The notes under the pieces were generated by a model that worked only from the letters and a program-made list of their open reading frames with translations, had not been told where the DNA came from and searched no databases. Below, piece after piece: positions 5,493 through 61,137 of a stretch of 64,000 nucleotides of DNA (position 1 is its first letter; each line of letters begins with the position of its first letter). A program made the translations under genes and the position numbers. The stretch comes from Campylobacteraceae bacterium. GTDB lineage: Bacteria > Campylobacterota > Campylobacteria > Campylobacterales > Sulfurovaceae. The stretch lies in the NCBI GenBank assembly GCA_027065045.1, contig JAMOOX010000087.1:30912-94911 (forward strand), read 5' to 3'.

Positions 5493-5842
5493 CAAACGAA
5501 GAGATTAAAAGACATAGAGTAGAGTCAATTTTAAAAGAGATTATTCCAGAGGCATTGAGTTCGCTTGATGATAGTAGGATTAACTCTCTACTTGTTACAG
5601 AAGTAGTATGTTCTAAAGGTAGAAGTAATGCAAAAGTTTATCTTGATAAGTCATTTCTTACTCCTCAAGAACAAGGTGAAGCACTAAAACAGCTTAGAAA
5701 AGTGGGTGGATTTATTCAAAACCACTGTAAAAGTAGTGAGGGGTGGTTTAAAGCACCTATCTTTACTTTTGAGTTTGATGAGCAGTTAGAGTATATTACA
5801 AAAATGGAAGATTTATTTAAACAAATTAGTGCAAAATCATAA
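5489..5842 (+). CDS. rbfA: ribosome-binding factor A
   Basis: 117 aa. ATGA overlap with infB, conserved infB-rbfA-rimP order, RbfA-like sequence. Confidence 0.85.
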   Translation: MTNEEIKRHRVESILKEIIPEALSSLDDSRINSLLVTEVVCSKGRSNAKVYLDKSFLTPQEQGEALKQLRKVGGFIQNHCKSSEGWFKAPIFTFEFDEQLEYITKMEDLFKQISAKS

Positions 5843-27837: not shown

Positions 27838-27923
27838 AGAGAGGTGTCCGAGTGGTCGAAGGTGCAGACCTGGAACGTCTGTGTAGTTTTCTACCGAGGG
27901 TTCGAATCCCTTCCTCTCTGCCA
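27838..27923 (+). tRNA. tRNA-Ser (anticodon GGA)
   Basis: Acceptor stem AGAGAGG/CCTCTCT plus G-CCA, D-arm GTCCGAGTGGTCGAAGG, and anticodon stem CAGAC/GTCTG with loop CTGGAAC. It also has a long variable arm and a GGGTTCGAATCCC T-arm. Confidence 0.9.
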
Positions 27924-28759: not shown

Positions 28760-28953
28760 AAAAGTCACCCCCTCTCTAATCTAAATTTTCTATATATTTA
28801 TAGAAATAATTAATAAGATAGAATTATATCTAAAAAATATTTTGTTATGCTTATTTAGGTAATAGAAATTTTATCTAATTGAGCATCTATATTTCATTAG
28901 GTTATAACTAAGTTTTAGATAAAATATATGTAATAATAATGCTTGGAGAAAAT

Positions 28954-31900
28954 ATGGCTGAATATGGTGCTAGTAATATTAAAGTCCTTAAGGGATTAGA
29001 GGCAGTTAGAAAACGCCCAGGAATGTATATTGGTGATACTGCTTCAAAAGGTCTTCATCATCTAATATATGAAGTTGTAGATAACTCTATCGATGAGGCT
29101 ATGGCAGGATTTTGTGATACTATTAAGGTTACACTTACCAAAGATGGTACTGCTATTATAGAAGATAATGGTAGAGGTATCCCTGTAGCAGAGCATCCAA
29201 CAGAGAAGATTTCCGCAGCGACTGTGGTTTTGACTGTGCTTCATGCTGGAGGGAAGTTTGATAAAGATACTTATAAAGTATCTGGTGGGCTTCATGGTGT
29301 GGGTGTATCTGTTGTAAATGCACTTAGTGCAGATTTACATTTAGAGGTTTTTAAAGATGGGTATAGTTATACTCAAAGCTTCAAAGAGGGTATTCCTCAA
29401 GAGGATTTAATTCAAGGTGATAAGAGTAGAAAACATGGTACAAAGATAGAATTTTTACCTGATGAGACTATTTTTAAAGAGGGAATTATATTTGATTATA
29501 ATATTCTTGCTAAAAGATTTAAAGAGTTAGCATATCTAAATCCTAAAATTACCATTAAATTTAAAGATGAAAGAAGTAATAAAAGTGAGGTATATCACTT
29601 TGAGGGAGGACTTAAAGAGTTTGTAGATGATTTAAATAAGAATGAACCAATATCTTCTACACAATTTTTTCAAGGTAAGTCTGATGATATAGAGATAGAT
29701 ATTGCTATTATGTACTCTAATAGTGATAGTGATAGAGTAGTATCATTTGTAAATAATATCAAAACTGCCGATGGTGGTACTCATGAAGCAGGATTTAGAG
29801 CAGGGACTACAAGAAGTATATCTCAATATATATCCAAAAATGCCAATGCCAAAGAGAAAGGTACTAAGATTACAGGAGATGATACCAAAGAGGGATTAGT
29901 GGCTGTTGTATCTGTAAGAGTACCTGAACCACAATTTGAGGGGCAAACTAAAGGTAAGTTAGGTTCTAGTTATGTTAAACCATTAGTTCAAAAGTTTATA
30001 TATGAACAGTTTAATAAGTTTCTTGAAGAGACTCCATTAGAGGCAAAAGCTATTATGGCTCATACAATCTTAGCAGCCAAAGGTAGAGATGCAGCTAAAA
30101 GAGCCAAAGATTTAGTCAAACGAAAAGACTCTATGAGTATAGGCACACTTCCTGGGAAATTAGCAGATTGTCAAAGCAAAGACCCTGCTTTATCTGAAAT
30201 TTACCTTGTGGAAGGGGATAGTGCTGGTGGGTGTTTTACTGGTGATACTCAAATATCTTTAGCAGATGGAAGAGATTTATCATTTTTAGATTTAATAGAA
30301 GAGTATAAAGAGGGTAAAGAGAATTTTTGTTACACAATTAAAGATGATGGTTCTATTGGAATAGAAAAAATACTACACCCTAGAAAAACAAAATCAAATA
30401 CTACTCTTGTTGAAGTAACATTAGATAATGGGAAAAAGATTAGATGTACTCCTGAACATAAATTTATGATAAGAGATGGAGAGTATATTGAAGCTCAAAA
30501 TTTAGAGAATGGGCAGAGTTTAATGCCACTTTATAAAAAATTATCTAAAATTGAGAATAGAGTTACTATTGATGGTTATGAGATGGTTTTAAATCCTAAA
30601 AATTCTAAATGGATATTTACTCATATGTTATCTAATAATTGGAATTTAGAAAAAGGTATTTATGATAAGATTGAAAAAGCACATAAACACCATATAGATT
30701 TTAATAAATTAAATAATAATCCAACTAATTTAATTTTATTATCTGCTGATGCACATTTAAAATTACATCAAAAACATATATCTAAAACTTTACATACAAA
30801 AGAGGCGAAAGAGAAAGCAAAAAAGGCTCATCAAACAATAGAATATAAATTAAACGCTAGTAAAATTTCAAAAAAATATTCAAAAATATTATCTCAAAAA
30901 GCCAAAAAACAGTGGGAAGATGAGAATTATAAAGAGTATATGAAAAATAAATATTTAGAATTTTATCAGACAAATGCTCAATATAGAGAGAACCTTTTAA
31001 ATAGATTAGATAATGCTCAAAGAGAGTATTGGTCTAAAGAAGAGAATAGAGTAAAGCAATCTAAAAAAACTACTGATTATTATATAAGTAATCCAAAAGC
31101 TAGAGAGATTTTATCTCAAAAAGCTAAGGAGCAGTGGAGTAGTGAAGAGTTAAGAGAGTGGAGAGCTAAAAAAACTAAAGAGCAAATGTCTAATCCTGAT
31201 AATCTTAAGAGGAAGTTAGCCACAGAGAAAAAAACTAGAATAAAAAATAGTTTAGAACTTTTAAATAGAGTTGGTATAGATAATTATGAAGAGTATAGAA
31301 AAAATGATAGAAGAGTTTTTAAAATAGATACACTTATTTCTAAAATTAATGAGAGTGAAAATAATTTTAATTTCTTAAGTAATCAAGATTTAATTTCTAG
31401 TGATTTATATACATATAATCATAAAGTTATATCTGTTCAAAAATTATCTATAAAAGAGGATGTTTATGATATAGAAGTCCCAAATACACATAATTTCGCT
31501 TTGTCCTCTGGAGTATTTGTCCATAATTCTGCCAAACAAGGAAGAGATAGAGTATTCCAAGCTATTCTACCTCTAAAAGGTAAGATTTTAAATGTAGAAA
31601 AAGCACGATTAGAAAAAATCTTAAAATCTGATGAGATTAAAAATATGATTACTGCCCTTGGTTGTGGTATAGGTGATGAGTTTAATGAAGAGAAGCTTCG
31701 TTATCATAAAGTTATTATTATGACTGATGCTGATGTTGATGGTAGTCATATTCAGACACTTCTTATGACATTCTTTTTTAGATTTCTTAAGCCTATTATT
31801 GAAAAAGGTTATTTATATCTTGCTCAACCTCCTCTTTATCGTTATAAAAAGGGTAAAAATGAGACATATCTCAAAGATGATAGAGAGTTAAATGAGTTTT

Positions 31901-32568
31901 TGATAGAACATGGTATAACTATAATAGAGAGTGATACAATGGGGGATAATGATTTAATTGATTTATTTAAATTGGTATCTTATTATAAAAGTACGCTAAA
32001 TGAGATAGAGAGACGATACTCTATGCCTGAAGTTTTGAAATATTTAATAGAAAATTCTAATATATTTAATGAAGATACATTTATTGAAAAAACTTTAGAT
32101 ATAGAGGAGTATATCAATTCTCTTGGATTTAATATTTTAAATAGAGAGAGTAGTGAGAATAAAATTCATCTTTTTGTTCAGACTAATGATGGATTAGAGG
32201 AGTTACTTATTGATAAAGAGCTATTTAATGACCCTCATTTTGAAGAGGCTATATCTTTGTATCATAAGATAGATGGTAGGATTACCCAAGAGTTCAAAGA
32301 TAAAGATATGTTGAAACTTCTTACAAAAGTAGAGAGTTATGCCAAAAAAGGTGCATATATCCAAAGATATAAAGGGCTTGGAGAGATGAACCCAGAACAG
32401 CTTTGGGAGACTACAATGACACCAGAAAATAGAGTGCTTCTAAAAGTTGTAATTGATGATGACCAAGAAGCTAGTGATACATTCTCTCTATTTATGGGAG
32501 ATGAGGTAGAACCACGAAGGAACTATATTGAATCTCATGCAAAAGATGTTAAACATTTGGATGTTTAA
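28954..32568 (+). CDS. gyrB: DNA gyrase subunit B, interrupted by an in-frame intein
   Basis: MAEYGASNIKVLKGLEAVRKRPGMYIGD start, with GHKL ATPase and TOPRIM motifs. The exteins total about 772 aa and join as EGDSAGG|SAKQGRD. Confidence 0.95.
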   Translation: MAEYGASNIKVLKGLEAVRKRPGMYIGDTASKGLHHLIYEVVDNSIDEAMAGFCDTIKVTLTKDGTAIIEDNGRGIPVAEHPTEKISAATVVLTVLHAGGKFDKDTYKVSGGLHGVGVSVVNALSADLHLEVFKDGYSYTQSFKEGIPQEDLIQGDKSRKHGTKIEFLPDETIFKEGIIFDYNILAKRFKELAYLNPKITIKFKDERSNKSEVYHFEGGLKEFVDDLNKNEPISSTQFFQGKSDDIEIDIAIMYSNSDSDRVVSFVNNIKTADGGTHEAGFRAGTTRSISQYISKNANAKEKGTKITGDDTKEGLVAVVSVRVPEPQFEGQTKGKLGSSYVKPLVQKFIYEQFNKFLEETPLEAKAIMAHTILAAKGRDAAKRAKDLVKRKDSMSIGTLPGKLADCQSKDPALSEIYLVEGDSAGGCFTGDTQISLADGRDLSFLDLIEEYKEGKENFCYTIKDDGSIGIEKILHPRKTKSNTTLVEVTLDNGKKIRCTPEHKFMIRDGEYIEAQNLENGQSLMPLYKKLSKIENRVTIDGYEMVLNPKNSKWIFTHMLSNNWNLEKGIYDKIEKAHKHHIDFNKLNNNPTNLILLSADAHLKLHQKHISKTLHTKEAKEKAKKAHQTIEYKLNASKISKKYSKILSQKAKKQWEDENYKEYMKNKYLEFYQTNAQYRENLLNRLDNAQREYWSKEENRVKQSKKTTDYYISNPKAREILSQKAKEQWSSEELREWRAKKTKEQMSNPDNLKRKLATEKKTRIKNSLELLNRVGIDNYEEYRKNDRRVFKIDTLISKINESENNFNFLSNQDLISSDLYTYNHKVISVQKLSIKEDVYDIEVPNTHNFALSSGVFVHNSAKQGRDRVFQAILPLKGKILNVEKARLEKILKSDEIKNMITALGCGIGDEFNEEKLRYHKVIIMTDADVDGSHIQTLLMTFFFRFLKPIIEKGYLYLAQPPLYRYKKGKNETYLKDDRELNEFLIEHGITIIESDTMGDNDLIDLFKLVSYYKSTLNEIERRYSMPEVLKYLIENSNIFNEDTFIEKTLDIEEYINSLGFNILNRESSENKIHLFVQTNDGLEELLIDKELFNDPHFEEAISLYHKIDGRITQEFKDKDMLKLLTKVESYAKKGAYIQRYKGLGEMNPEQLWETTMTPENRVLLKVVIDDDQEASDTFSLFMGDEVEPRRNYIESHAKDVKHLDV
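30232..31527 (+). mobile_element. GyrB intein (432 aa) with HNH-type endonuclease core
   Basis: Block A is CFTGDTQISLADG (Cys1 codon at 30232) and block B is RCTPEHKF. Blocks F/G are VYDIEVPNTHNFALSSGVFVHN followed by +1 Ser (Asn codon at 31525-31527). The central HNH-like motif is HKHHIDFNKLNNNPTNLILLSADAHLKLH. Confidence 0.85.
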
Positions 32569-33980
32569 TGCTTTTATCTACACTATTAGAACGAGAGAGG
32601 CGATTTAAAATCGCACTAAGAGCAGGTATTCCTGCTTTGGTATTTATTTTTGTAATTTTGTATATTTTATTTGTTCAAGATACAAATATTGTTGTATCTA
32701 TTAAAGATAGTTTAGTTGTAGCAGGTATTGTATTTACTACCATATATTTTATATATTTTATGATAGAACTTGCTACTAAAGGTACTCTACTTGATAAAGA
32801 GACAGATGGATTTAATCAAAATGCTTTTATAGATATAGTCAAACATAAAAAACCCAAAACCATAGCACTTTTAGTGATTAAAAATTTAGACTCTATAGGA
32901 GAGAATTATGGATATAAAAATTTAAATATTACTCTAAATGATATTATAGATTCTCTTGATATATTTTTGGCTCAATATGGAGTAAAAAATATTATTATAG
33001 GGCGATATAGCAGGTCAAAATTTATATTAGCACTTGATAAGGATACCAAAGATATAGAAGAGATTTTGCATAAATTTACCAAAAACTATAACTCTATCAA
33101 AAATATAGAGATAGATTATATATTTTCTGTAATTGCAAATAATCATAAAGAGAGTGTTACTAAAATGATTAATCTAATAGATATTGATGCTAGTAGCAAA
33201 AAGAAAAAGCAGATTATTGTCAAAGATAGCAAAAAAGAGATAGAACTAGAAGATGCTATCAAAGATGCCCTTGATACTCAATCTCTAGCATTTACATTTA
33301 GACCACTGCTTAATAGTTCTACTGATAAAATTGATATTTATACTATCTCTATCAAAATGATTTTAAGAGACCAAAAAGAGCTACTACCACGAGTATATCT
33401 TCCTGTGATTAATCGTTTGGGATTGGGGCAAATTTATGATTTAGCCGTTGTAAAACAGGTTGCTCATACGGCATCATTAATTGATGATAGTATATCTTTG
33501 AGCTTTAATTTATCTCCATTTTCTATTAGAGATAGAGGTTTTTTGAGAAATGCTTTAAATATTATTAAAGCAGATGATATATCTCCTAATCGTATGATTA
33601 TAGAGATATATGAGAAAAATACTCACCATAATATGAGTAATTATCTTAAAATATTGGATAATATTAGAAATAAAGGTATTAGAATTTCAATAGATAATTT
33701 TGGTTCATCAAACTCATCATTTGATTATATAAAATATTTTAAATTTGATATGGTTCAATTTGATAGAGATTTTACTAAAAATATTGATGATAAGAATTCT
33801 CTTGCTATGTTTAATTCACTACTAAAGATGTGTAAAGAGTTAAATATTACAACAATAGCAAAATGGGTAGATGATGATACTCAAAAAGAGAAACTTAAAA
33901 AATTAAATGTAGATTATATGCAAGGTTTTGGTATTAAAAAACCAATTAGTAGAAGAGAACTTATAATGAAATATAGTTAG
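32568..33980 (+). CDS. membrane protein with GGDEF-like and degenerate EAL domains
   Basis: 2 TM helices. The EAL-domain landmarks are recognisable but altered: SIK in place of EAL, DNFG in place of DDFG, QFD in place of KxD. The ATG overlaps the gyrB stop (TAATG). Confidence 0.7.
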   Translation: MLLSTLLERERRFKIALRAGIPALVFIFVILYILFVQDTNIVVSIKDSLVVAGIVFTTIYFIYFMIELATKGTLLDKETDGFNQNAFIDIVKHKKPKTIALLVIKNLDSIGENYGYKNLNITLNDIIDSLDIFLAQYGVKNIIIGRYSRSKFILALDKDTKDIEEILHKFTKNYNSIKNIEIDYIFSVIANNHKESVTKMINLIDIDASSKKKKQIIVKDSKKEIELEDAIKDALDTQSLAFTFRPLLNSSTDKIDIYTISIKMILRDQKELLPRVYLPVINRLGLGQIYDLAVVKQVAHTASLIDDSISLSFNLSPFSIRDRGFLRNALNIIKADDISPNRMIIEIYEKNTHHNMSNYLKILDNIRNKGIRISIDNFGSSNSSFDYIKYFKFDMVQFDRDFTKNIDDKNSLAMFNSLLKMCKELNITTIAKWVDDDTQKEKLKKLNVDYMQGFGIKKPISRRELIMKYS

Positions 33981-37688: not shown

Positions 37689-37864
37689 ATATTAAATTAA
37701 TATTACCTATGTTATAATTTCTCCATACAAATAAAATATAGATACAAATCTTTCTTAACAATTCCAAATAATTTATTAAAATTTAAATTTTGCCTATTTT
37801 ATTGGGTATTCTCTTAATTTTTATAAATTTTTCACACATTACATATAAAATCAAGGACATTAAA

Positions 37865-40405
37865 ATGGACAGCAATATGATGAATACAATACATTTAAAT
37901 ATTAAAAATATATTACCTAAAATACTTACACCTATTATAACAAGTACAAATCAAAATACTTTTGTAGGTAGAAGTAAAGAGGTTGAGATAATTGATAAGT
38001 TCTTTGGTATTAGTAATGCCTTAGTCTTAGTTAGTTCACTTTCTGGTGTGGGTAAAAGCTCACTAGCTTCTCACTATTTAGAACTTCATAGAGAGGAGTT
38101 TGATTATTATGGTTATGTCAAAATTAATGATAGTTTTCGTCAAAGTTTCACATCATCATTTAAAATTTCACTAGGATTAGAACAGGGTAGATTAGATGAC
38201 CTATTTATTGAAGCTATTACAAAACTTAGTTATTTAGAGGGAAAAAAATTTCTTATTATAGATAATTCACAAGGTATAGAACTTCCATCTAATAAGATTA
38301 ATTTAGTTTTAAATCTAATCAACAAAGATTTCAAAATCTTATTTATATCAAATTCTAAAATTAAAGATATTAGAGATTATGAGATAGGTACATTGAGTAT
38401 TGATGATGCTTCTGCTCTTTTTATCAACTATTGTCCTACAAATGAGATAGAGAAAGTCAAGAAGATAGTCTCATATTGTGGTTATCATACATTTTTTCTA
38501 AAGCTTCTTGCAAAAAGAATTAGGAGTAATGAATATAATCTTGATGATATTATTGCAAAATTTGAAAACAAAGAGTTAATTTCACTACAAGATGGTGATA
38601 TTAATATGATTATAAATAGTAATATCCAAAAACTACTATTTATGCAACAATTAGATATTGAGTATATGACTCTATTAAAACGACTATCAGCACTACCTTC
38701 TATTGAAATAAAAGCTAATTTTATAAAAGAGTTACTAAAAGAAGAAGTAGAAGAGAAGTTAAATTCATTAGTATCTTGGGGGTGGATAAGTAAAAGAGGT
38801 GATAGCTATAAGTTACATCATATATTAAAAAACTATATATTAAACTATAATCATGCAACATTTAATGATATAGCCTCTATCGTAGAGTATTTTAATATGC
38901 TAATTAGCGATAGTCATTCAGCAGAAGCAGTAATAAATGCAAAGAAAAATCTTCTCTATCTAAAATCTCTTAAGATTATTTTACAAACATTTGATATTCA
39001 ACATAGTACAATTTCAACCTTTTATGAGAACTTAGGTAATATATATTATCATCTAGGTGAGTATGATAAAGCTCTTGAAATTTCACATAAATCTCTTAAA
39101 CTTTTGATAAAGGCAAATGGTGAAGATAGTATAAAAGTAGCTCAAAATTATAATGATTTAGGATTGGTTTATAAATCTAAAAAAGATTATGGAAGAGCCT
39201 TATCTCTTCTTAAAAAAGCACTTCTTATCCGTATCAAACTATTAGGCAATACCCATATTAATACAGCTAGAAGTTATAATAATGTAGGATTAGTTTATAG
39301 ATTAAGTGGTAATTATGATGAAGCATTGAAGTATTTTAATAAAGGATTAGTGATAAATGAGTCTATTTTAGGAAAATACTCTATCAATATATCATATATT
39401 TATAATAACATAGCCCTTACTTATCAAGAAATTTTAGATTATAAAAAGGCTCAACTGTTTTTTCAAAAAGCAATCAAAATAAGAGAAAAACATTTAGGCA
39501 AAAATCATTTAGATACAGCTATGGCATATAGTAATCTAGCAATTCTTTATAGAGATATTAAAAAATACTCAAGAGCATTATCACTACTAAAAAAATCAAT
39601 AGAGATTTATACAACAATATTAGGTGAGACTCATCAAAGGAGTATATCTAATTATAATAAAATGGCACTAATTTATCAAGATATGAATAGTGAGCAGTTA
39701 GCTATGGATTATATCAAAAAGGTTCTCAAAATCAAGCTAACTACTCTAGGAGAGTATCACCCTAAAACTGCACTTGCTTATAATAATCTAGGATTGATGT
39801 ATCTTTCAAAAAATGATTATAGTGGGGCTAGACAACTATTTAAAAAAGCTTTTTCAATTCTTAAAAATATTTTAGGAGAGTCTAATTTAGATACAGCACT
39901 TGTAAGATATAACTTAGCCATTACTCACTTTTTAATGAAAGATTATCAATATGCTAGACCAATATTTACAAAAGCATTAGATACATATGAAGAAATTTTG
40001 GGAATATCACATCCTAAAACAATTAGAATTAAAAATTCACTAGCAGTAGTTTATGCACAGCTTTTAAGAGATGATAAAGCAATGGAGATATATTATGAGA
40101 GTATTGTTATATCACAAGATAGAGATTTAAATACAGCACTTAGCTACCATAATATAGCAACTCTACTATTTAATAAAGAGGAGTATCAAGAGTCTTATGA
40201 GAATATGCTAGAGTGCGTAGAGATTAGAAGCAAACTATTAAGTAAAAAAGATTCATCTCTAATAAATGCCAAAAATAAACTTACAATTATGAAAGATATA
40301 TTAAATAAACTTCAAAATAGTAGAAAAATAGATGATTTTTTGAAATTTAAATTAGACTTTTTTGTAAGTGATAAAACCTTAGATAATTTACTTGTGATGA
40401 GATAA
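37865..40405 (+). CDS. P-loop NTPase (NB-ARC/STAND-like) fused to a long TPR array, paralogue 1
   Basis: FVGRSKEVEIIDKF, then Walker A LSGVGKSS and Walker B KFLIIDNS. About 10 kinesin-light-chain-type TPR_12 repeats follow (A..YNNLGLVY...Y..AL..L.KAL.I....LG..H..TA). The ATG at 37865 with an AAGGA RBS is preferred over the TTG at 37790. Confidence 0.8.
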   Translation: MDSNMMNTIHLNIKNILPKILTPIITSTNQNTFVGRSKEVEIIDKFFGISNALVLVSSLSGVGKSSLASHYLELHREEFDYYGYVKINDSFRQSFTSSFKISLGLEQGRLDDLFIEAITKLSYLEGKKFLIIDNSQGIELPSNKINLVLNLINKDFKILFISNSKIKDIRDYEIGTLSIDDASALFINYCPTNEIEKVKKIVSYCGYHTFFLKLLAKRIRSNEYNLDDIIAKFENKELISLQDGDINMIINSNIQKLLFMQQLDIEYMTLLKRLSALPSIEIKANFIKELLKEEVEEKLNSLVSWGWISKRGDSYKLHHILKNYILNYNHATFNDIASIVEYFNMLISDSHSAEAVINAKKNLLYLKSLKIILQTFDIQHSTISTFYENLGNIYYHLGEYDKALEISHKSLKLLIKANGEDSIKVAQNYNDLGLVYKSKKDYGRALSLLKKALLIRIKLLGNTHINTARSYNNVGLVYRLSGNYDEALKYFNKGLVINESILGKYSINISYIYNNIALTYQEILDYKKAQLFFQKAIKIREKHLGKNHLDTAMAYSNLAILYRDIKKYSRALSLLKKSIEIYTTILGETHQRSISNYNKMALIYQDMNSEQLAMDYIKKVLKIKLTTLGEYHPKTALAYNNLGLMYLSKNDYSGARQLFKKAFSILKNILGESNLDTALVRYNLAITHFLMKDYQYARPIFTKALDTYEEILGISHPKTIRIKNSLAVVYAQLLRDDKAMEIYYESIVISQDRDLNTALSYHNIATLLFNKEEYQESYENMLECVEIRSKLLSKKDSSLINAKNKLTIMKDILNKLQNSRKIDDFLKFKLDFFVSDKTLDNLLVMR

Positions 40406-40444: not shown

Positions 40445-42976
40445 ATGTTTAAGAAAAACCATATATGTTTGATGCCAAAAAAAACATTTAAAGTACTTAC
40501 TCCTATTGTAACACATATAAATAAAAATACTTTTGTAGGTAGAGCTAAAGAGGTAGATATAATTGATAAATTTTTTACTATTAGTAATGCTTTGGTACTT
40601 ACAAGTGATATTGGTGGTGTTGGTAGGAGTAGCTTAGCTTCTCACTATTTAGATATTAATATAAATAAATTTGATTATTATGGTTATATTAAAATTAATG
40701 ATAGTTTTCGTCAAAGTTTTACATCATCATTTAAAGAGTCATTATCACTAGAACAAAATAGTTTAAATGACCTATTTATTGAAGCTATTACAAAACTTGG
40801 AAATTTAAATGGTAATAAATTTCTTATTATAGATAACTCCAAAGGTATAGAAGTATCTAAACATAAACTAAATCTAATTTTAAATCTAATTAATAAAAAT
40901 TTTAAAATACTTTTTATATCTAATAAAAAAATCAAAGATATTAGAGATTATGAGATAGGTGCATTGAGTGTTGATGATGCTCTACAACTATTTATCAACT
41001 ATTGTCCTACATCCCAAAAAAAGAGTGTAGAGAAAATAGTAGAATATTGTGGTTATCATACATTCTTTATTAAATTATTAGCAAAAAGAGTTTATAGTAG
41101 TGGATATAACTTAGATAAAATTATAGATATGTTTAATTCCAAGCAGTTAATGCCTTTGAAAAAAGGAAATATTATGCTTCTTATTAATATCAATATTCAA
41201 AAACTATTTTTTATGCAAAAATTAGATAGAGAGTGTATATCTCTTCTTAAGAAATTATCAGCCCTACCATCTATTGAGATTAGTTCAGATTTTATATCTA
41301 TACTACTCAAAGATAAGCTTAGAGATAAATTAGAAGCTTTGGCATTTTTTGGGTGGATTAGTAAGCAAGGTAATGGTTATAAACTCCATCACATAGTAAA
41401 AAATCATATATTAAATTATAATCATGCTACATTTAATGATATAACATATATAGTTGAGTATTTTAATCATTTAATCAAGGATAGTTATTCCAAAGAGGCT
41501 TTAATAAATGCTAAAAAAAATCTTTTATATTTTAAATCACTAAATAGTATTTTACAAAGATTTGATATTCAGCATGATAAAATATCAACATTTTATCAAA
41601 ACTTAGCTAGTATATATCATCAATTAGGAGAAGATAATAAAGCTATTGAAATTTTAAATAAATCACTTGTTAATAATAAACACTCTCTTAAAGGAGCTAA
41701 AAATTATAATAATTTAGGTCTAATATATAAATCATCAAAAGAGTATAAAAATGCACTATATTGGCTCAATAAATCACTTAATATTAGAATAGATATATTG
41801 GGTGAATTTAATATTGAAACAGCTAGAAGTTATAATAATGTAGGATTGATATATAGATTAATTGGTAACTATGAAAAGGCTTTTATATATTTTAATAAAT
41901 CTCTAAATATCAAAGATAAACTTTTAGATAAGTATGATATTGAAAGGTCATATCTATATCATAATATGGCACTTACTTATCAACAAATATTAGATTATAA
42001 AAAAGCTCAATTCTATTTCCAAAAAGTTATTAAAATTAGAGAAAAATATTTAGGTAAAAATAGCTTAGAGACTGCAATGGGATATAGTAATCTAGCACTT
42101 TTATATAGAGATATAAATAAACACTCAATGGCACTATCTTTACTAAAAAAATCTATCAAAATTTATAAAAATAATTTGGGAGAAGAGCATCAAAAGAGTG
42201 TATATAACTACAATTATATTGCACAAATATATAAAGATATAAATAGTGATGATTTAGCGATGCATTATATTAAAAAAGTTCTTAAGATTGATTTAACTCA
42301 TCTAGGAGAGTATCATCCTAAAACTGCTCTTGCATATAATAATTTAGGATTATTATATCTTTCAAAAAATAATTATACTCAATCAAAAGCATTTTTTGTT
42401 AAATCTATATCAATACTTAAAAATATATTAGGAGAAGAGCATTTAGATTGTGCCATAATAAGTGTAAATTTAGCTATTAGCAAATATTTTATAAAAGATT
42501 ATATAGATAGCAAAAGAATTTTAATCAAAGCATTAAATACCTATGAAAATATCTTAGGAATATTACATCCCAAAACACTCTCCCTTCAAAATCTTTTAGC
42601 TTTACTATTTGCTAAATTAAATAGATATGATAAAGCATTAGATATCTACCATCAAAGTATTAATCATTCAAAATCTGTTATAAAAGATGGAGATTTAAAT
42701 ACAGCACTTAGCTATCATAATATTTCTATTATATTTTTACATATAAAAGAGTATGAAAAAGCCTTAATTAATATGCAAAAATGTGTAGATATAAGATTAA
42801 GACTACTACCAAGAAAAGATAAATATTTATTAAACACCATAGATAAAATGATTATAATAAAAAATCTTTTATACAAAGAAAAAAAATGTAGAGAAGTCGA
42901 TGATTTTATAGAGTTAGATTTTGATATATTTACAAGTGATAAACATTTAGATAACCTTTTTATGATGAGGGAGTAA
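40445..42976 (+). CDS. P-loop NTPase (NB-ARC/STAND-like) + TPR array, paralogue 2 (Walker A Lys replaced by Arg)
   Basis: Collinear with paralogue 1 along its whole length and roughly two-thirds identical by eye. Walker A reads IGGVGRSS (AGG codon at 40625-40627). Walker B is KFLIIDNS. Confidence 0.8.
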   Translation: MFKKNHICLMPKKTFKVLTPIVTHINKNTFVGRAKEVDIIDKFFTISNALVLTSDIGGVGRSSLASHYLDININKFDYYGYIKINDSFRQSFTSSFKESLSLEQNSLNDLFIEAITKLGNLNGNKFLIIDNSKGIEVSKHKLNLILNLINKNFKILFISNKKIKDIRDYEIGALSVDDALQLFINYCPTSQKKSVEKIVEYCGYHTFFIKLLAKRVYSSGYNLDKIIDMFNSKQLMPLKKGNIMLLININIQKLFFMQKLDRECISLLKKLSALPSIEISSDFISILLKDKLRDKLEALAFFGWISKQGNGYKLHHIVKNHILNYNHATFNDITYIVEYFNHLIKDSYSKEALINAKKNLLYFKSLNSILQRFDIQHDKISTFYQNLASIYHQLGEDNKAIEILNKSLVNNKHSLKGAKNYNNLGLIYKSSKEYKNALYWLNKSLNIRIDILGEFNIETARSYNNVGLIYRLIGNYEKAFIYFNKSLNIKDKLLDKYDIERSYLYHNMALTYQQILDYKKAQFYFQKVIKIREKYLGKNSLETAMGYSNLALLYRDINKHSMALSLLKKSIKIYKNNLGEEHQKSVYNYNYIAQIYKDINSDDLAMHYIKKVLKIDLTHLGEYHPKTALAYNNLGLLYLSKNNYTQSKAFFVKSISILKNILGEEHLDCAIISVNLAISKYFIKDYIDSKRILIKALNTYENILGILHPKTLSLQNLLALLFAKLNRYDKALDIYHQSINHSKSVIKDGDLNTALSYHNISIIFLHIKEYEKALINMQKCVDIRLRLLPRKDKYLLNTIDKMIIIKNLLYKEKKCREVDDFIELDFDIFTSDKHLDNLFMMRE

Positions 42977-55798: not shown

Positions 55799-58700
55799 TT
55801 ACCCCTTATACTTTTTAATAATTTCTTCTACAATTGCTTTATTCATTTTACCCTCTAGCTCTTCACCTAGCGTAATACCTAGCGTATCAAATTTTGATTT
55901 CTTTGGTAAGATAATAGCTAAAGCATCTTTTTGTGCTTTAATAGAATCACTTACAAACTGTGCATCTGTAAATAGTATTCCATACTCATTAGTTGCAATT
56001 TTTGCATCTAAATTTGCAATATTATCAATTACTTCATACTCATTACCAGTATTTTTAATCATTGTTGATAACATTCTAACCTCTAATAGGCTCTTTTTTG
56101 CTATCAATATTTTATTAGCTAACTCTTTTTTCTTAGGAGTCTCTACCTTAGGTGCTACCGTCTTCTCTACTAATTCATCTTTAGGCTCTGTTGGAGTCTC
56201 TTTAGATTTTCTTTTATTTGATTTATTTCCTGTGAGCTTACTTCTTCGTTCATCTCTCTGCTTCTCAAACTCATCTTTATCAATTTTTTGAGATTTATGA
56301 GATAAAAATTTATTTAGAACATAAACTAATTCTGTTGTCTCAATTGGCTTAGATACATACTCATCAAGCCCCTCTTTAAGGAATGCCTCTCTATCACCTT
56401 TAAGTGCATTTGCAGTTAAAGCAACGATAGGGATATGTTCAATCTCTTCATCTTTTTCATAATTAATAATCTCTCTTGTAGCTTCTAGCCCATCCATAAC
56501 AGGCATTTGAATATCCATAAAGATTAAATCATAACTTCCATTTCTTCGTTTCTCAAATGCCTCTAAACCATTGTTTGCTAAATCAATATCCATACCATGT
56601 TCACTTAAAACATGTTTGATAAGTTTTTGGTTAATAATATTATCTTCTGCTACTAATATCTTAGCATTAAATACAGTAGCTTGTTTCACTGCCTCTTCCT
56701 GTACTTTTTCTTCAATATGCTCAATTTTTTGAGATGCATTTTTTAAAGCACCTTTTAATTTAGTTACCGTAACAGGTTTGAAAATAACATTATCATTATT
56801 GATACCTAACTCCTCTATTTTTTTACGAGTTGTTACATTTGCCAATACAAATAGTTTCTCTTTCTCAATTTTACCCAAACTATCATAAATATTCTCATTA
56901 ATTTTATCTATATCTACCCAATAAGATTCACATTTATTTTGACTATGAAGACCTTTGAGTTCAGAAACTGCCGAGAAATTTTGTACTTTTGGAGTAAAGT
57001 GGTCAAAATATCTATCTATAAATTTATCAAGTGTTGTACGACTGTTATAATCTTCATACTTACATAATGATGTCTCTTTAAAGTTTGTATTTGTTACTCC
57101 TGTATCATCTATATCAATCTCTTCAAGAGGTAGTGAGAAGAAGAATTTAGTACCAACATCCTCTTCGCTAGTAAGTTCTAATCTTCCTCCCATTAGTTCT
57201 GTAAATTGACTAGAGATTGTAAGACCAAGTCCTGTACCACCATATTTTCTAGTAACAGAGGCATCAGCTTGTGAGAAGGCATCAAAAATTCTTGATTGCT
57301 GTTCAGCTGTCATACCAATACCATTATCAGAAACACTAAATGTAATTTTTGAATTTAAATCATTATCATCTTTTGTTTTAACTATCTCAACATTAATTTC
57401 ACCCTCATAACCTGTAAACTTAATTGCATTACTCATTAGATTAATTAGAACCTCTTTAATCTTAGTAGGGTCACCTTTAAGTTTAATAGGAATTGTAGGG
57501 TCCATATAGAAGTTAAGGTCAATATTCTTTTCAGCCGCACCAACTGCATAAGTCTCAACTGCACTCTCAAACTCTTCGTAAGAGTTGAATATAATATTCT
57601 CTATCTCAATCTTATTACTCTCAATTTTAGAAAGGTCTAGAATATTATTAATAATACTTAGTAGATTTTCTGAACTTTTATCAATAATTCCCAAAAACTC
57701 TGCTTGTTCTGGTGTGGTATCGGTAGATTTCAAAAGTTCTGTAAATCCAACAATACCATTTAATGGTGTTCTAATCTCATGCGACATATTAGCTAGAAAC
57801 AGTGATTTAGCCTCATTAGCTTCAAATGCCATTTTTTTATCTTTTTTGGCATTTTCAATTAGTGATTCCAAAAATTGATAAGCTGTTTTTGTACCTTTAT
57901 GAGTATTAAGGTCAATATTTTCAATTGATTCAATATCATCAATATCAGAATCAGTAGATTTTGCTTCACTAACTGCTTTATTAATTACATCTTCTAGTTC
58001 TTTAATATTATTACTAATATCTCTAGCTGTTCTAAAGCCCATAAAGAGTAATATAGTACTAAATACCCATAATCCAAGTGAAATATATAAAATACTCTGT
58101 TGTTCTACTAGATAATCTTGACTAGCCTTTTCTAACTCTTGATATATACGCTTTTGTGCTTTAGATAAAATTGATATTCTATCTGTTTGTGCAGTAAACC
58201 ACTCTTTACCAGTAATATCATATTTACCTGTATTAATTTGTGATTGGACAGATGCAATCATACTATCTAATTTTTTTAGAGTATATCTATTTTTAGGGTC
58301 ATTATATATAGAAGCTATAGATTTTCTTATAGATGATTCATTAATATGTTTTGGTTGAAATATATGAGATTGAATATTATACGAATCCCACATAGACATC
58401 TCATCTTTATTTAATTTAAGCCTTTTAGTAATATAATATGAGATAAAAGCTCTTGATAATCCAGCATTCTCTTTTGCAATATATAGTTGAACATGTGTCT
58501 GTAATAGAGCATTGATTTTACTATTTAATGTAAATTTATTAATCTGAACTAGAGAATCTAAAACGGGATTAATAATATTTTTAGTATAGTCTATAGCAAA
58601 AATTGTTTTAAAGTCACTATCATCACTATCAACTTTGGCTCGTGCTCTATTTATAAGTTTTAATTTATCAATAGCATTTTGATATGATATAGTCTTGACC

Positions 58701-59068
58701 ATATCATAACTATCTTTCATAGTTGGAACATATTGTAAATAATCTATATTTTTATCTACTATATTCTCTTGTGAACTACCTATAAATTCAGAAGCTAGTT
58801 TAATAGATGAGTTTAATTTAGCTCTTTGATTTTCAAGTTTTCCCAAAAACTCTTTTTTATCTGATGCTATATATAGAGAAGAGAATCCCCTCTCTTTTCC
58901 TAAATCCAATAAGACTTCATCTAAAAATTTATTTTTTTTAATTACATTCTCTAATGAAAGAGATTCATAGTATTTAACACCTGTTGTTACAACAAAATAA
59001 CCCGATAATGTAAATAGTAATGAGATTGGTATAAAACCAATCAACTTTAATCTGCCTTTAATAGTCAT
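55799..59068 (-). CDS. hybrid sensor histidine kinase / response regulator with periplasmic NIT-like sensor domain
   Basis: A TM helix is followed by LGKERGFSSLYIAS and KENAGLSRAFISYY, the paired NIT-type motifs, then a second TM helix. Next come H-box MSHEIRTPLNGI, N/G boxes and a receiver (DLIFMDIQMPVMDG). An extra ~190-aa C-terminal region follows. Confidence 0.85.
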   Translation of the reverse strand: MTIKGRLKLIGFIPISLLFTLSGYFVVTTGVKYYESLSLENVIKKNKFLDEVLLDLGKERGFSSLYIASDKKEFLGKLENQRAKLNSSIKLASEFIGSSQENIVDKNIDYLQYVPTMKDSYDMVKTISYQNAIDKLKLINRARAKVDSDDSDFKTIFAIDYTKNIINPVLDSLVQINKFTLNSKINALLQTHVQLYIAKENAGLSRAFISYYITKRLKLNKDEMSMWDSYNIQSHIFQPKHINESSIRKSIASIYNDPKNRYTLKKLDSMIASVQSQINTGKYDITGKEWFTAQTDRISILSKAQKRIYQELEKASQDYLVEQQSILYISLGLWVFSTILLFMGFRTARDISNNIKELEDVINKAVSEAKSTDSDIDDIESIENIDLNTHKGTKTAYQFLESLIENAKKDKKMAFEANEAKSLFLANMSHEIRTPLNGIVGFTELLKSTDTTPEQAEFLGIIDKSSENLLSIINNILDLSKIESNKIEIENIIFNSYEEFESAVETYAVGAAEKNIDLNFYMDPTIPIKLKGDPTKIKEVLINLMSNAIKFTGYEGEINVEIVKTKDDNDLNSKITFSVSDNGIGMTAEQQSRIFDAFSQADASVTRKYGGTGLGLTISSQFTELMGGRLELTSEEDVGTKFFFSLPLEEIDIDDTGVTNTNFKETSLCKYEDYNSRTTLDKFIDRYFDHFTPKVQNFSAVSELKGLHSQNKCESYWVDIDKINENIYDSLGKIEKEKLFVLANVTTRKKIEELGINNDNVIFKPVTVTKLKGALKNASQKIEHIEEKVQEEAVKQATVFNAKILVAEDNIINQKLIKHVLSEHGMDIDLANNGLEAFEKRRNGSYDLIFMDIQMPVMDGLEATREIINYEKDEEIEHIPIVALTANALKGDREAFLKEGLDEYVSKPIETTELVYVLNKFLSHKSQKIDKDEFEKQRDERRSKLTGNKSNKRKSKETPTEPKDELVEKTVAPKVETPKKKELANKILIAKKSLLEVRMLSTMIKNTGNEYEVIDNIANLDAKIATNEYGILFTDAQFVSDSIKAQKDALAIILPKKSKFDTLGITLGEELEGKMNKAIVEEIIKKYKG

Positions 59069-59085
59069 TATAATCTGCCTCCATA

Positions 59086-61137
59086 TTAGTGTGCAATATT
59101 TTCCATAAAGAGTTTAAATGATAAGAATTGTCCCCAATATTTTTTGAGAAGTGGCTCAAATCTAGCTGGATTTTCACAATGTTGTATCTCTTCTAATGTC
59201 TCTGAAAGAGGTATAATTCGTAAATTACTAGAAGCCCCTTTTAACTTATGTCCTGTCTTTTGAATAGTATCAATATCACCCTCTGCAAAAGCCTTAATAA
59301 AAGTCTCTTTCTCTTCTACTGCTTGGTCAACAAAGTCATTTACAAACTCTTCAATCAAATCAACAGGAAGACTTAAATCATCTGCTGCCTCTTCTAATCT
59401 AAAGTCAAAATGGATAGGCTTAATACCATCTAGTTCTAAAGTTCCAAATCCTTGTGGCTCTTCCTCTTTAGGCTCTATTTTCTCTTCTACTTTCTTTTCT
59501 ATTGGTTCTTCTATCTCTTGAGGTTTTTCATTAGATACAGTAGTGATTTGTCCTAAACATTCAAAGTATATATCAACAAGCTCTTCTTCAAGATAATCTC
59601 TCTCTTGCATATCTACAAGTATCTCTTCTAAGTTTGCTATCTCTAAACTCTCTGCAATACTTTGCAACTCTTCTAAAGCTTCTTCTCTTGCAGATTTATC
59701 CTCTGAGCGTAAATCCTCATCACAAATAATAGATTTGTCTATAAATTCATTTAAAAAATCTTGATAATCAGTAGCAGATATTCCCATATCTTCACTTCTA
59801 TCATCTATATTTATCTCTATAGTATCATCACAATTATAATCTTTGATAGGTTTTTTCTCTATTTTTTTCTCTATTTTTTTCTCTACTTTTGGCTCTTCTT
59901 TAGGAGATACTTTATCTTCATCAATATCTAAAAGTAAATCTTTAATCTCCTCTACTTCTTCTTTGAGTTCCTCTTTTTGAGGAGTAGAGATAGGCTTTTC
60001 AACATCTAAAAGTAAATCATCAATATCTTCTATCTCCTCCTCTTCTACTTTAGGTTCTTCTTTTTTGGGTGCAGGTTCTTCAAGGTCTAAAAGTAAATCA
60101 TCAATCTCTTCAACCTCCTCCTCTTCTACCTTTGGCTCTTCTTTAGGAGATACTTTATCTTCATCAATATCTAAAAGTAAATCTTTAATCTCCTCTACCT
60201 CTTCTTTGACTTCCTCTTTTTGAGGAGTAGAGATAGGCTTTTCAACATCTAAAAGTAAATCATCAATCTCTTCAACCTCCTCCTCTTCTACCTTTGGCCC
60301 TTCTTTTTTAGGTGCAGGTTCTTCAAGGTCTAAAAGTAAATCATCAATCTCTTCAACCTCCTCCTCTTCTTCCTCTTCAATATCATCAATCTTTAGCTCT
60401 TCTTGAGGTGTAGGTTCTTCAATATCTAAAAGAAACTCATTACTCTCTTCAATTTCTACCTCTTCCTCTTCAATATCATCAATCTTTAGCTCTTCTTGAG
60501 GTGTAGGTTCTTCAATATCTAAAAGAAGCTCATTACTCTCTTCAAGCTCCTCTTCTTCTTTATTATCTTCTAATAATTTAGATAGAGTATCTTCAAATAA
60601 CTCCTCTTTAGGTTCAATAGTCTCTACTGATGGCTCTAATTTAGCCATTGTAGTTTTTGGATTTTGAAGTTCTTGACTAGCCTCTTCCAAATCTTGTTCT
60701 AATTGACTTTTTTTCTCTTCTATTATAGGTGTTTTTTTAATTGGTTTTGTAATAACTTCATCGTCATCATCATCAAAGAAAATACTAGGGATTTTCTTTT
60801 TAGGTTTTTTAGGTTCATCATCTAATAGAATATTTAATTTATTTACACTTTTTATGTCATCTTTTTTATCATTAGCTTTAGATTTAGATACAGTATTGTA
60901 TAACTTTACTAATATTATATCTCCAAAAGTTGTTTTGATAGTATATTCTTCATAAGCACTTTGAATTGTACTTACATCTGAAATAATTGTTAGTTTTCTA
61001 TCACTGATTTTAGTAATCTTTATATCATTATTGACTACCTTACTAAAGAGAATAGGCAGATTATCAATCTCCAAAATCTCCAATAGTTCATAGTCAGCAG
61101 CTACAATTTGTCTCTCTTGATTTAACATATAATACAT
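59086..61137 (-). CDS. HPt (histidine phosphotransfer) domain protein with a very large acidic repeat region
   Basis: The C-terminal QKTGHKLKGASSNLRI matches the HPt motif HxLKGxxxxxG. The middle ~350 aa is Glu/Asp/Leu-rich tandem repeats. The start may be 61137 or 61128. Confidence 0.75.
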   Translation of the reverse strand: MYYMLNQERQIVAADYELLEILEIDNLPILFSKVVNNDIKITKISDRKLTIISDVSTIQSAYEEYTIKTTFGDIILVKLYNTVSKSKANDKKDDIKSVNKLNILLDDEPKKPKKKIPSIFFDDDDDEVITKPIKKTPIIEEKKSQLEQDLEEASQELQNPKTTMAKLEPSVETIEPKEELFEDTLSKLLEDNKEEEELEESNELLLDIEEPTPQEELKIDDIEEEEVEIEESNEFLLDIEEPTPQEELKIDDIEEEEEEEVEEIDDLLLDLEEPAPKKEGPKVEEEEVEEIDDLLLDVEKPISTPQKEEVKEEVEEIKDLLLDIDEDKVSPKEEPKVEEEEVEEIDDLLLDLEEPAPKKEEPKVEEEEIEDIDDLLLDVEKPISTPQKEELKEEVEEIKDLLLDIDEDKVSPKEEPKVEKKIEKKIEKKPIKDYNCDDTIEINIDDRSEDMGISATDYQDFLNEFIDKSIICDEDLRSEDKSAREEALEELQSIAESLEIANLEEILVDMQERDYLEEELVDIYFECLGQITTVSNEKPQEIEEPIEKKVEEKIEPKEEEPQGFGTLELDGIKPIHFDFRLEEAADDLSLPVDLIEEFVNDFVDQAVEEKETFIKAFAEGDIDTIQKTGHKLKGASSNLRIIPLSETLEEIQHCENPARFEPLLKKYWGQFLSFKLFMENIAH
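59885..60560. repeat. in-frame coding tandem repeats inside the HPt gene
   Basis: Two near-identical 243-bp (81-codon) units run from about 59885-60127 and 60128-60370. Two 93-bp units follow at about 60375-60560. Boundaries are approximate. Confidence 0.8.

Follow-up and report, generated by a model that had tools for sequence, protein, structure and literature searches.

A full-length, very probably bifunctional intein of the gyrB allele, with a predicted HNH endonuclease, splits the TOPRIM motif of gyrase B in a Sulfurovum-like Campylobacterota

Introduction

Why is the gyrB gene of a Sulfurovum-like member of the Campylobacterota so much longer than a gyrase B subunit needs to be? The 64,000-nucleotide stretch of DNA analysed here, which is referred to as the window (GenBank assembly GCA_027065045.1, contig JAMOOX010000087.1, positions 30,912 to 94,911), contains a gyrB open reading frame (ORF) at 28939..32568 on the + strand, encoding 1209 amino acids (aa). 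An earlier examination of the window's letters alone, referred to as the sequence-only reading, had noted that this ORF is about 430 codons longer than its exteins require, and had attributed the excess to a 432-aa HNH-type intein at 30232-31527. The answer supported by our analysis is that the insert very probably belongs to the long-known gyrB allele of inteins, as a class-1 member that is full length and bifunctional. It interrupts the metal-binding motif of TOPRIM without a change of frame, in a gyrase gene that is essential.

Results

An in-frame insert in the TOPRIM motif

The ORF was divided into three parts:

28939..30231, + strand: gyrB N-extein (ATPase, transducer and the start of TOPRIM, up to ...EGDSAGG; Pfam HATPase_c and DNA_gyraseB, NCBIfam TIGR01059)
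30232..31527, + strand: complete 432-aa class-1 intein of the gyrB allele (Cys1...His431-Asn432)
31528..32568, + strand: gyrB C-extein (Ser+1 of SAKQGRD..., remaining TOPRIM, proteobacterial insert and C-terminal domain; Pfam Toprim, GyrB_hook and DNA_gyraseB_C)

The insert at 30232-31527 was confirmed as 432 stop-free codons, which start with CFTGDT, end with GVFVHN and are followed by SAKQGRD. It is flanked by ...YLVEGDSAGG upstream and SAKQGRDRVFQAILPLKGK... downstream, and it lies between EGDSAGG and SAKQGRD. Its removal in silico restored the TOPRIM motif EGDSAGG^SAKQGRD (the caret marks the insertion point, here and below), which is contiguous in the nearest relative (protein P0122, contig L081) and in more than 118 GyrBs. 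Without the insert, GyrB has a normal length of 777 aa, compared with 771-775 aa in close relatives, and the assignment of both exteins was supported by a profile scan, with the NCBIfam gyrB model TIGR01059 scoring 919.8 bits.

An assembly artefact or chimera was considered and rejected, as the ORF is uninterrupted, an independent ENA metagenome contig (ERZ27262656 k141_360399) is identical to the window at 5614 of 5615 nucleotides over gyrB and its flanks, and a homolog is found at the same site in three other Campylobacterota lineages. Two starts are possible for gyrB itself: that of the longest ORF, at 28939 (MLGENMAEY...), and that of a public gene call (P0121/L083), at 28954 (MAEYGASN...), the latter matching the N-termini of most relatives.

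The Hint splicing domain

The two ends of the insert form the predicted splicing domain:

30232..30546, + strand: Hint N-terminal splicing lobe, residues 1-105 (block A Cys1, block B T73-x-x-H76)
31417..31527, + strand: Hint C-terminal splicing lobe, residues 396-432 (block F D413, block G H431-N432)

The sequence-only reading had named Cys1 (CFTGDT), a block B TPEH and a terminal VHN followed by Ser+1, all of which were located, with TPEH at intein residues 73-76. The search for Hint domains that it had proposed gave three models above their cut-offs: Pfam Intein_splicing PF14890 (85 bits, cut-off 35.8), NCBIfam intein_Nterm TIGR01445 on residues 1-80 (45 bits, cut-off 24.5) and NCBIfam intein_Cterm TIGR01443 on residues 410-432 (29.5 bits, cut-off 15.6).

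For comparison with relatives, genomes were scanned at one genome per species by using patterns derived from the window query, so the lineage sample may be biased. The scan recovered 80 loci, and both junctions were resolved in 70 of them. The class-1 catalytic set is complete in the window intein (C1, T73, H76, D413, H431, N432 and Ser+1), and each of these residues is invariant in all 70 homologs.

An AlphaFold2 model of the whole intein, built on 40 homologs, had a mean predicted local distance difference test score (pLDDT) of 87.5, with values of 95-98 in the Hint lobes. In a fold search, this model matched approximately 47 solved inteins or Hint domains at E<=1e-3, and it superposed on the DnaE, DnaB, RecA and RadA inteins at E ~1e-6, including the DnaE, DnaB and RecA mini-inteins for the N-terminal lobe. 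Sequence matches to solved structures fell only in the two Hint lobes (DnaE, RadA, NrdJ and DnaB mini-inteins). Based on these motifs and homologies, the Hint domain is predicted to carry out protein splicing, a prediction to which the essential nature of gyrB and the splicing of the allelic Synechocystis GyrB intein lend indirect support.

The predicted endonuclease core

Between the Hint lobes, the first part of the insert is as follows:

30547..30786, + strand: beta-hairpin lead-in and predicted HNH (beta-beta-alpha-metal) nuclease core, residues 106-185

An HNH-like centre had been placed at about 30680-30775, and the motif was found there, as AHKHHIDFNKLNNNPTNLILLSADAHLKLH at residues 150-179 (nucleotides 30679-30768, HKHHIDFNKLNNNPTNL...AHLKLH), inside the HNH core. 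Profile, fold and residue conservation agreed on this assignment. Two PHROG HNH endonuclease families were matched, phrog_7545 (E=3.6e-9) and phrog_21964 (E=9.9e-7), covering intein residues ~110-201, and when 40 family members were scanned singly, 27 matched Pfam HNH_3 (E<=0.1, lowest value 4.5e-5). Residues H153, H154, D156, N161, N162 and N166 are kept in all 70 relatives, and H175 and H179 in 69 of the 70.

As the Hint domain dominated the matches of the whole-intein model, that fold search was uninformative on the nuclease; therefore, residues 93-395 were modelled separately (pLDDT 88.3). In the whole-intein model, the beta-beta-alpha unit consists of strands 151-154 and 167-170 and helix 172-183. 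The top PDB match of the separate model was I-HmuI of the Bacillus phage SPO1 (1u3e; probability 0.98, 103 columns, 22% identity), followed by Cas8-HNH and I-PpoI. Against BFVD, it matched dozens of phage HNH or homing endonucleases, with a best E-value of 1.2e-5. The likeness to I-HmuI consists of the beta lead-in and a beta-beta-alpha-metal core without zinc-binding cysteines. The difference is that I-HmuI is free-standing and intron-encoded, whereas in the window a Hint domain encloses the HNH core, and an array of helical repeats, ~170 residues long, comes after the core. From its sequence and its model, the centre of the intein is predicted to be an I-HmuI-like HNH endonuclease.

A LAGLIDADG endonuclease was rejected in favour of this assignment, in line with the sequence-only reading, as no LAGLIDADG family was matched in the Pfam and NCBIfam scans of the GyrB protein. 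Solved LAGLIDADG inteins (1dq3, 7qss) appeared in the fold search only amid many mini-intein (Hint) matches, at E ~1e-4. The PDB searches made here turned up no structure of an HNH-type intein.

The basic helical array and its tryptophan repeats

The remainder of the insert is predicted to be helical and contains repeated sequences:

30787..31416, + strand: basic all-helical array, residues 186-395, presumed DNA-recognition module
30886..30939, + strand: helical repeat copy 1, ILSQKAKKQWEDENYKEY (W228)
31003..31056, + strand: helical repeat copy 2, RLDNAQREYWSKEENRVK (W267)
31108..31161, + strand: helical repeat copy 3, ILSQKAKEQWSSEELREW (W302, W310)
31159..31212, + strand: degenerate repeat copy 4, WRAKKTKEQMSNPDNLKR

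The array holds 47 Lys and Arg residues against 32 Asp and Glu. In the AlphaFold2 models, in which the pLDDT of its helices is mostly 80-98, long helices run from ~190 to 356 and shorter ones to 389. Its last ~30 residues (~366-395) form a low-confidence, poorly conserved linker, in which a stretch of approximately eight residues (373-380) is missing from most relatives.

The sequence-only reading had described at least three copies of a basic helical motif and likened them to NUMOD-type DNA-binding repeats. The repeats themselves stood up to the analysis. The best ungapped 16-aa self-match, between LSQKAKKQWEDENYKE and LSQKAKEQWSSEELRE, scored 55, a value reached by none of 300 shuffles (mean 29.7, maximum 40), and a second pair, copies 2 and 3, scored 43 in the same test. 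The weaker copy 4 (residues 310-327) scored 32, which is inside the shuffle range. The repeat tryptophans are near-invariant, W228 being found in 66 of the 70 relatives, W267 and W302 each in 69, and W310 belonging to the same near-invariant set.

The resemblance to NUMOD was rejected. No Pfam NUMOD family matched the window intein at E<=1, and none matched in 40 family members (the window protein and 39 relatives) at E<=0.1. The sole trace of NUMOD was one BFVD match named NUMOD4, aligned over 80 columns. The fold search found no PDB counterpart of the helical array. As enzymes of the I-HmuI type have DNA-binding extensions, the array, by analogy, most likely makes sequence-specific contacts with DNA; I-HmuI binds its DNA with two helices plus a helix-turn-helix domain.

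Distribution in Campylobacterota and the empty site

The exteins of the window are approximately 79-82% identical to Sulfurovum GyrBs. The nearest relative, P0122 (contigs L081/L082), shares 90.4% aa and 86.8% nucleotide identity in the exteins and is without the intein, presenting a precise empty site, GAAGGTGATAGTGCAGGTGGT^TCAGCAAAACAGGGAAGAGAT, in P0122/L081. The alignment with intein-less relatives that had been suggested as a check on the call therefore gave a precise presence/absence polymorphism between exteins that are 90% identical. A fixed, immobile remnant had been expected to appear as the same insert, with decayed endonuclease motifs, in all relatives; instead, the nearest relatives are intein-less and the HNH residues of the window copy are intact.

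Besides the window, the carriers in Campylobacterota were L001-L003, P0001 and P0048. The inteins of L001 and L002 (metagenome-assembled genomes, MAGs, of Campylobacteraceae), L003 (a Sulfurovum MAG) and P0001 (Campylobacterales) are 74-76% identical to that of the window over all 432 aa, with the same insertion site and architecture, and their host exteins are 77-81% identical. GyrB exteins of 122 Campylobacterota were compared, with the window, L001 and L003 as the three carriers. Each of the three had an intein-less nearest neighbour at 90-95% identity, and in a ranking of 121 sequences by similarity to one carrier, the other carriers came only in places 75 to 116. More than 118 Sulfurovum-type GyrBs have no intein, and the carriers are dispersed among them. 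As the nearest neighbours of the carriers are intein-less, the intein is sporadic, and a fixed clade trait was rejected. The nesting of carriers among intein-less relatives indicates separate occurrences.

The sequence-only reading had doubted that gyrB inteins are usual in this phylum. The rarity was overstated, in that the allele is a classic one and at least three further lineages of Campylobacterota carry it; within Campylobacterota the intein is indeed rare, without being unique.

Relation to known inteins

The intein family at this exact gyrB site has been known since the 1990s. Its member in Synechocystis sp. PCC 6803 (Ssp GyrB; the InBase gyrB allele), which interrupts the same host protein, is a standard tool in protein engineering, and was reportedly the first intein to be assigned an HNH endonuclease, by Dalgaard et al. 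in 1997. Our literature searches found no explicit statement on HNH in the GyrB intein. The Ssp GyrB intein splices in E. coli, and its putative endonuclease domain has been deleted to make a mini-intein (PMC3620165). At the C-terminal end, where the likeness was compared, its C-intein reads GVFVHN followed by S-A at +1/+2, identical to the window intein (PMC2794532). GyrB inteins are already listed in Actinobacteria, Chloroflexi, Cyanobacteria and Proteobacteria (PMC4760082), and the gyrB allele has been described from Halobacteria and other Euryarchaeota as well as from Bacteria (PMC4071816).

When the intein alone served as the query of a protein search, 840 homologs were found, nearly all inside GyrB and many of them named 'intein-containing DNA gyrase subunit B' by NCBI. 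Their hosts include Campylobacterales, Patescibacteria, Nanoarchaeota, cyanobacteria, Methanosarcinales and Omnitrophota. In the 70 resolved loci, the junction was always E-G-D-S-A-G-G ^ C ... (V/I)FVHN ^ S, and full-length copies of 430-436 aa were found in 66 of them. These approximately 70 homologs at the identical site span Campylobacterota, Patescibacteria, DPANN and other archaea. The comparison with catalogued GyrB insertion sites, also proposed beforehand, thus placed the insert at the same site as the Ssp GyrB type. The window intein adds an ordinary new member to this allele, in a host that is a Sulfurovum-like Campylobacterota and not a cyanobacterium. Cyanobacterial GyrB inteins (Planktothrix, Waterburya and Pseudanabaena) are 43-50% identical to it over 72-100% of its length, Planktothrix P0032 having 43% identity at 100% query coverage.

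Small-genome lineages are heavily represented among loci L004-L080, including Patescibacteria (candidate phyla radiation) and the DPANN groups Woesearchaeota, Pacearchaeota and Nanoarchaeota, with inteins ~43-53% identical to that of the window.

The endonuclease module is also homologous to those of HNH inteins in phage T4-like portal proteins and GyrA (phmmer E ~1e-19 to 1e-44). Intein_splicing was matched in these host proteins, and in the portal proteins HNH_3 exceeded its cut-off, at up to 73.7 bits. The inteins of phage portal proteins, 'terminase' and GyrA differ from that of the window in having other host proteins and other insertion sites, and they are 30-38% identical to it. Four portal proteins (P0260, P0297, P0291 and P0293) are 1500-2800 aa long with 2-6 Hint stretches each, and so contain several inteins per protein, and P0315 is a GyrA whose intein has the same HNH endonuclease module. 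BFVD models of a Hint protein of Bacillus phage SP-15 and of a Siphoviridae 'terminase' aligned over more than 300 columns with the model of residues 93-395. These model alignments suggest that the HNH module together with its array may be present in both phage proteins.

Selection, transfer and decay

Selection was estimated by comparing the window intein with those of L001-L003. In the HNH core, the proportion of nonsynonymous differences (pN) was 0.09-0.13 and that of synonymous differences (pS) 0.46-0.71. The ratio of nonsynonymous to synonymous rates (dN/dS) was 0.04-0.20 in the HNH core, 0.14-0.30 in the helical array and 0.06-0.09 in the Hint lobes, values that are approximate since the synonymous rate (dS) to the nearest intein relatives is saturated (>1). 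Therefore, only the qualitative result was used, namely that pN is far below pS, as under purifying selection.

The two Campylobacteraceae MAGs showed a different pattern in the intein and in its surroundings. Between L001:3273-6903 and L002:1-3631, the intein is 98.7% identical at the nucleotide level (17 of 1302 positions differ), compared with 95.0% in the exteins (88 of 1769; Fisher p=8e-9). The corresponding dS is 0.05 in the intein and 0.22-0.27 in the exteins, five-fold less in the intein, and identity dips at both intein borders. This looks like the outcome of a recent intein transfer between lineages, or possibly of MAG chimerism.

Internal deletions were found in four of the 70 relatives (L060, L063, L075 and L078; 343-412 aa), in the endonuclease part only. 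L063 is without the HNH alpha-helix (window residues 172-192), and the other three are without 53-91 residues of the helical array. These are apparently decaying copies. Their sources are MAGs of Nanoarchaeota, Shapirobacteria, Thermoplasmatota and Omnitrophota. As empty, intact and decaying copies are all found in the family, they can be arranged as states of the classical homing cycle, with the window copy as the intact state.

Discussion

The sequences show the anatomy of the element, its homology, the conservation of its residues, purifying selection and a presence/absence polymorphism, and from these we infer splicing, cleavage and current mobility. In the mechanism that we propose, gyrB would be translated into a precursor in which the insert interrupts the acidic motif of TOPRIM, and the Hint domain (residues 1-105 and 396-432) would excise the insert by the class-1 pathway. 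Cys1 would form a thioester, which Ser+1 would attack in a transesterification, and Asn432 would then cyclise, helped by His431, block B Thr73 and His76 and block F Asp413. After an O-N shift, the ligated exteins would form the mature 777-aa GyrB. By analogy with known homing endonucleases, the helical array and the beta lead-in of the free intein would bind gyrB DNA that has no intein. The HNH centre of the intein would be expected to nick or cut the intein-less allele at or near GAAGG(G/T)GATAGTGC(T/A)GGTGG(G/T)^TC(T/A)GC(C/A)AAACA(A/G)GGAAGAGAT. Recombinational repair from an intein-containing copy would then copy the intein into the cut allele, completing the homing.

Several observations weigh against an intact endonuclease that has moved recently. 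Pfam HNH_3 on residues 153-174 of the window intein scored 18.6 bits (E=0.0014) and did not reach its gathering score of 24.8, and the fold match to I-HmuI has a weak E-value of 0.084. At position 319, which is Trp in 65 and Met in four of the 70 relatives, the window intein has Met, a small departure in repeat 4. The saturated dS described above limits what can be drawn from the selection estimates. The G+C content of the intein, 25.5% compared with 32.9% in the exteins, counts in favour of a homing element, and this lower value may come in part from the Lys/Asn-rich composition of the insert. The window and L001 are similarly identical in the intein (75%) and in the exteins (79%), which is equally compatible with an old vertical inheritance followed by many losses.

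Some of these observations could be explained if the intein were competent for splicing and immobile, at a late point of the homing cycle at which cleavage has been lost and the element is kept because its precise deletion is hard. As gyrB is essential, the Hint domain would still have to work in such a copy. The four relatives that have lost the HNH helix or parts of the array do show this state, and the sub-threshold HNH_3 match and the W319 to M change in the window would fit such a loss. However, the window copy has its full length and has kept all of the conserved HNH residues, the full ~430-aa architecture is retained in 66 of the 70 members, and the endonuclease is under purifying selection, whereas a dead domain would be expected to drift. 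Taken together, we consider an immobile intein improbable for the window. The description of the element as probably active and mobile receives indirect support from purifying selection, the precise empty site and the scattered distribution, the activity itself being a prediction. An intein with current or recent mobility is what the sequences probably represent.

Strong purifying selection over a distribution that crosses domains could also be expected if the endonuclease or its helical module had been co-opted for a role in the host, for example in conditional splicing that tunes the supply of gyrase, or in DNA binding by the excised intein. The clustering of inteins in replisome proteins has been discussed as possibly functional (PMC4760082). 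A host function is difficult to reconcile with the intein-less close relatives, P0122 and the more than 118 Sulfurovum-type GyrBs, and with a distribution that is sporadic and not clade-wide. No sensor is indicated by the sequence, and a homing element already accounts for all of the features, so that we regard co-option as highly unlikely. A mobile intein of the gyrB allele is therefore the explanation that we retain.

Taken alone, the finding matters little. The host range of the gyrB intein allele now includes Sulfurovum-like Campylobacterota, and the allele is found in both prokaryotic domains, being well represented in Patescibacteria and DPANN. For annotation, the 1209-aa gyrB is neither a misassembly nor a fusion, and the mature gyrase would be normal. 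Relatives of the Ssp GyrB intein are useful parts for protein engineering, and the homolog in the window, which is intact, cleanly bounded and from a low-GC host, is a candidate part. The host is probably mesophilic, given its Sulfurovum-like affiliation.

The conserved helical array with its Trp repeats is the only aspect without a clear precedent, and it is underexplored. The HNH module that bears the array also occurs in inteins of a GyrA and of phage portal proteins. The array may represent a kind of modular repeat, not characterised before, by which HNH homing endonucleases recognise DNA, made of 3-4 copies of a [A/T]K-x-Q-W helix whose Trp is near-invariant across bacteria and archaea, a proposal that we make tentatively and hold to be rather doubtful. 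If it were true that each repeat reads a few base pairs, the array could be a new programmable recognition scaffold.

Neighbouring genes

Among the ten largest other ORFs of the window, no other intein was found. Directly downstream of gyrB, a 470-aa gene at 32568-33980 (+ strand), with an EAL domain in the public call, starts on the last base of the gyrB stop codon. This 1-nucleotide overlap suggests translational coupling or co-transcription of the 470-aa gene with gyrB. On the minus strand just upstream of gyrB, the public calls on the identical contig are an asparaginase-like gene and a gene for ribosomal protein S21. A tRNA-Ser (GGA) at 27838-27923 (+ strand) was the only RNA family match in the window.

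Further downstream, two adjacent genes on the + strand at 37790-40405 and 40445-42976 encode large proteins with TPR repeats, 871 and 843 aa long, which matched TPR_12 and TPR_10 at up to 275 bits and are probably tandem paralogs. A 1088-aa hybrid sensor kinase is encoded at 55799-59068 on the - strand, with an N-terminal NIT (nitrate/nitrite-sensing) domain followed by HisKA, HATPase and receiver domains, and it is adjoined by an Hpt-domain protein at 59086-61137.

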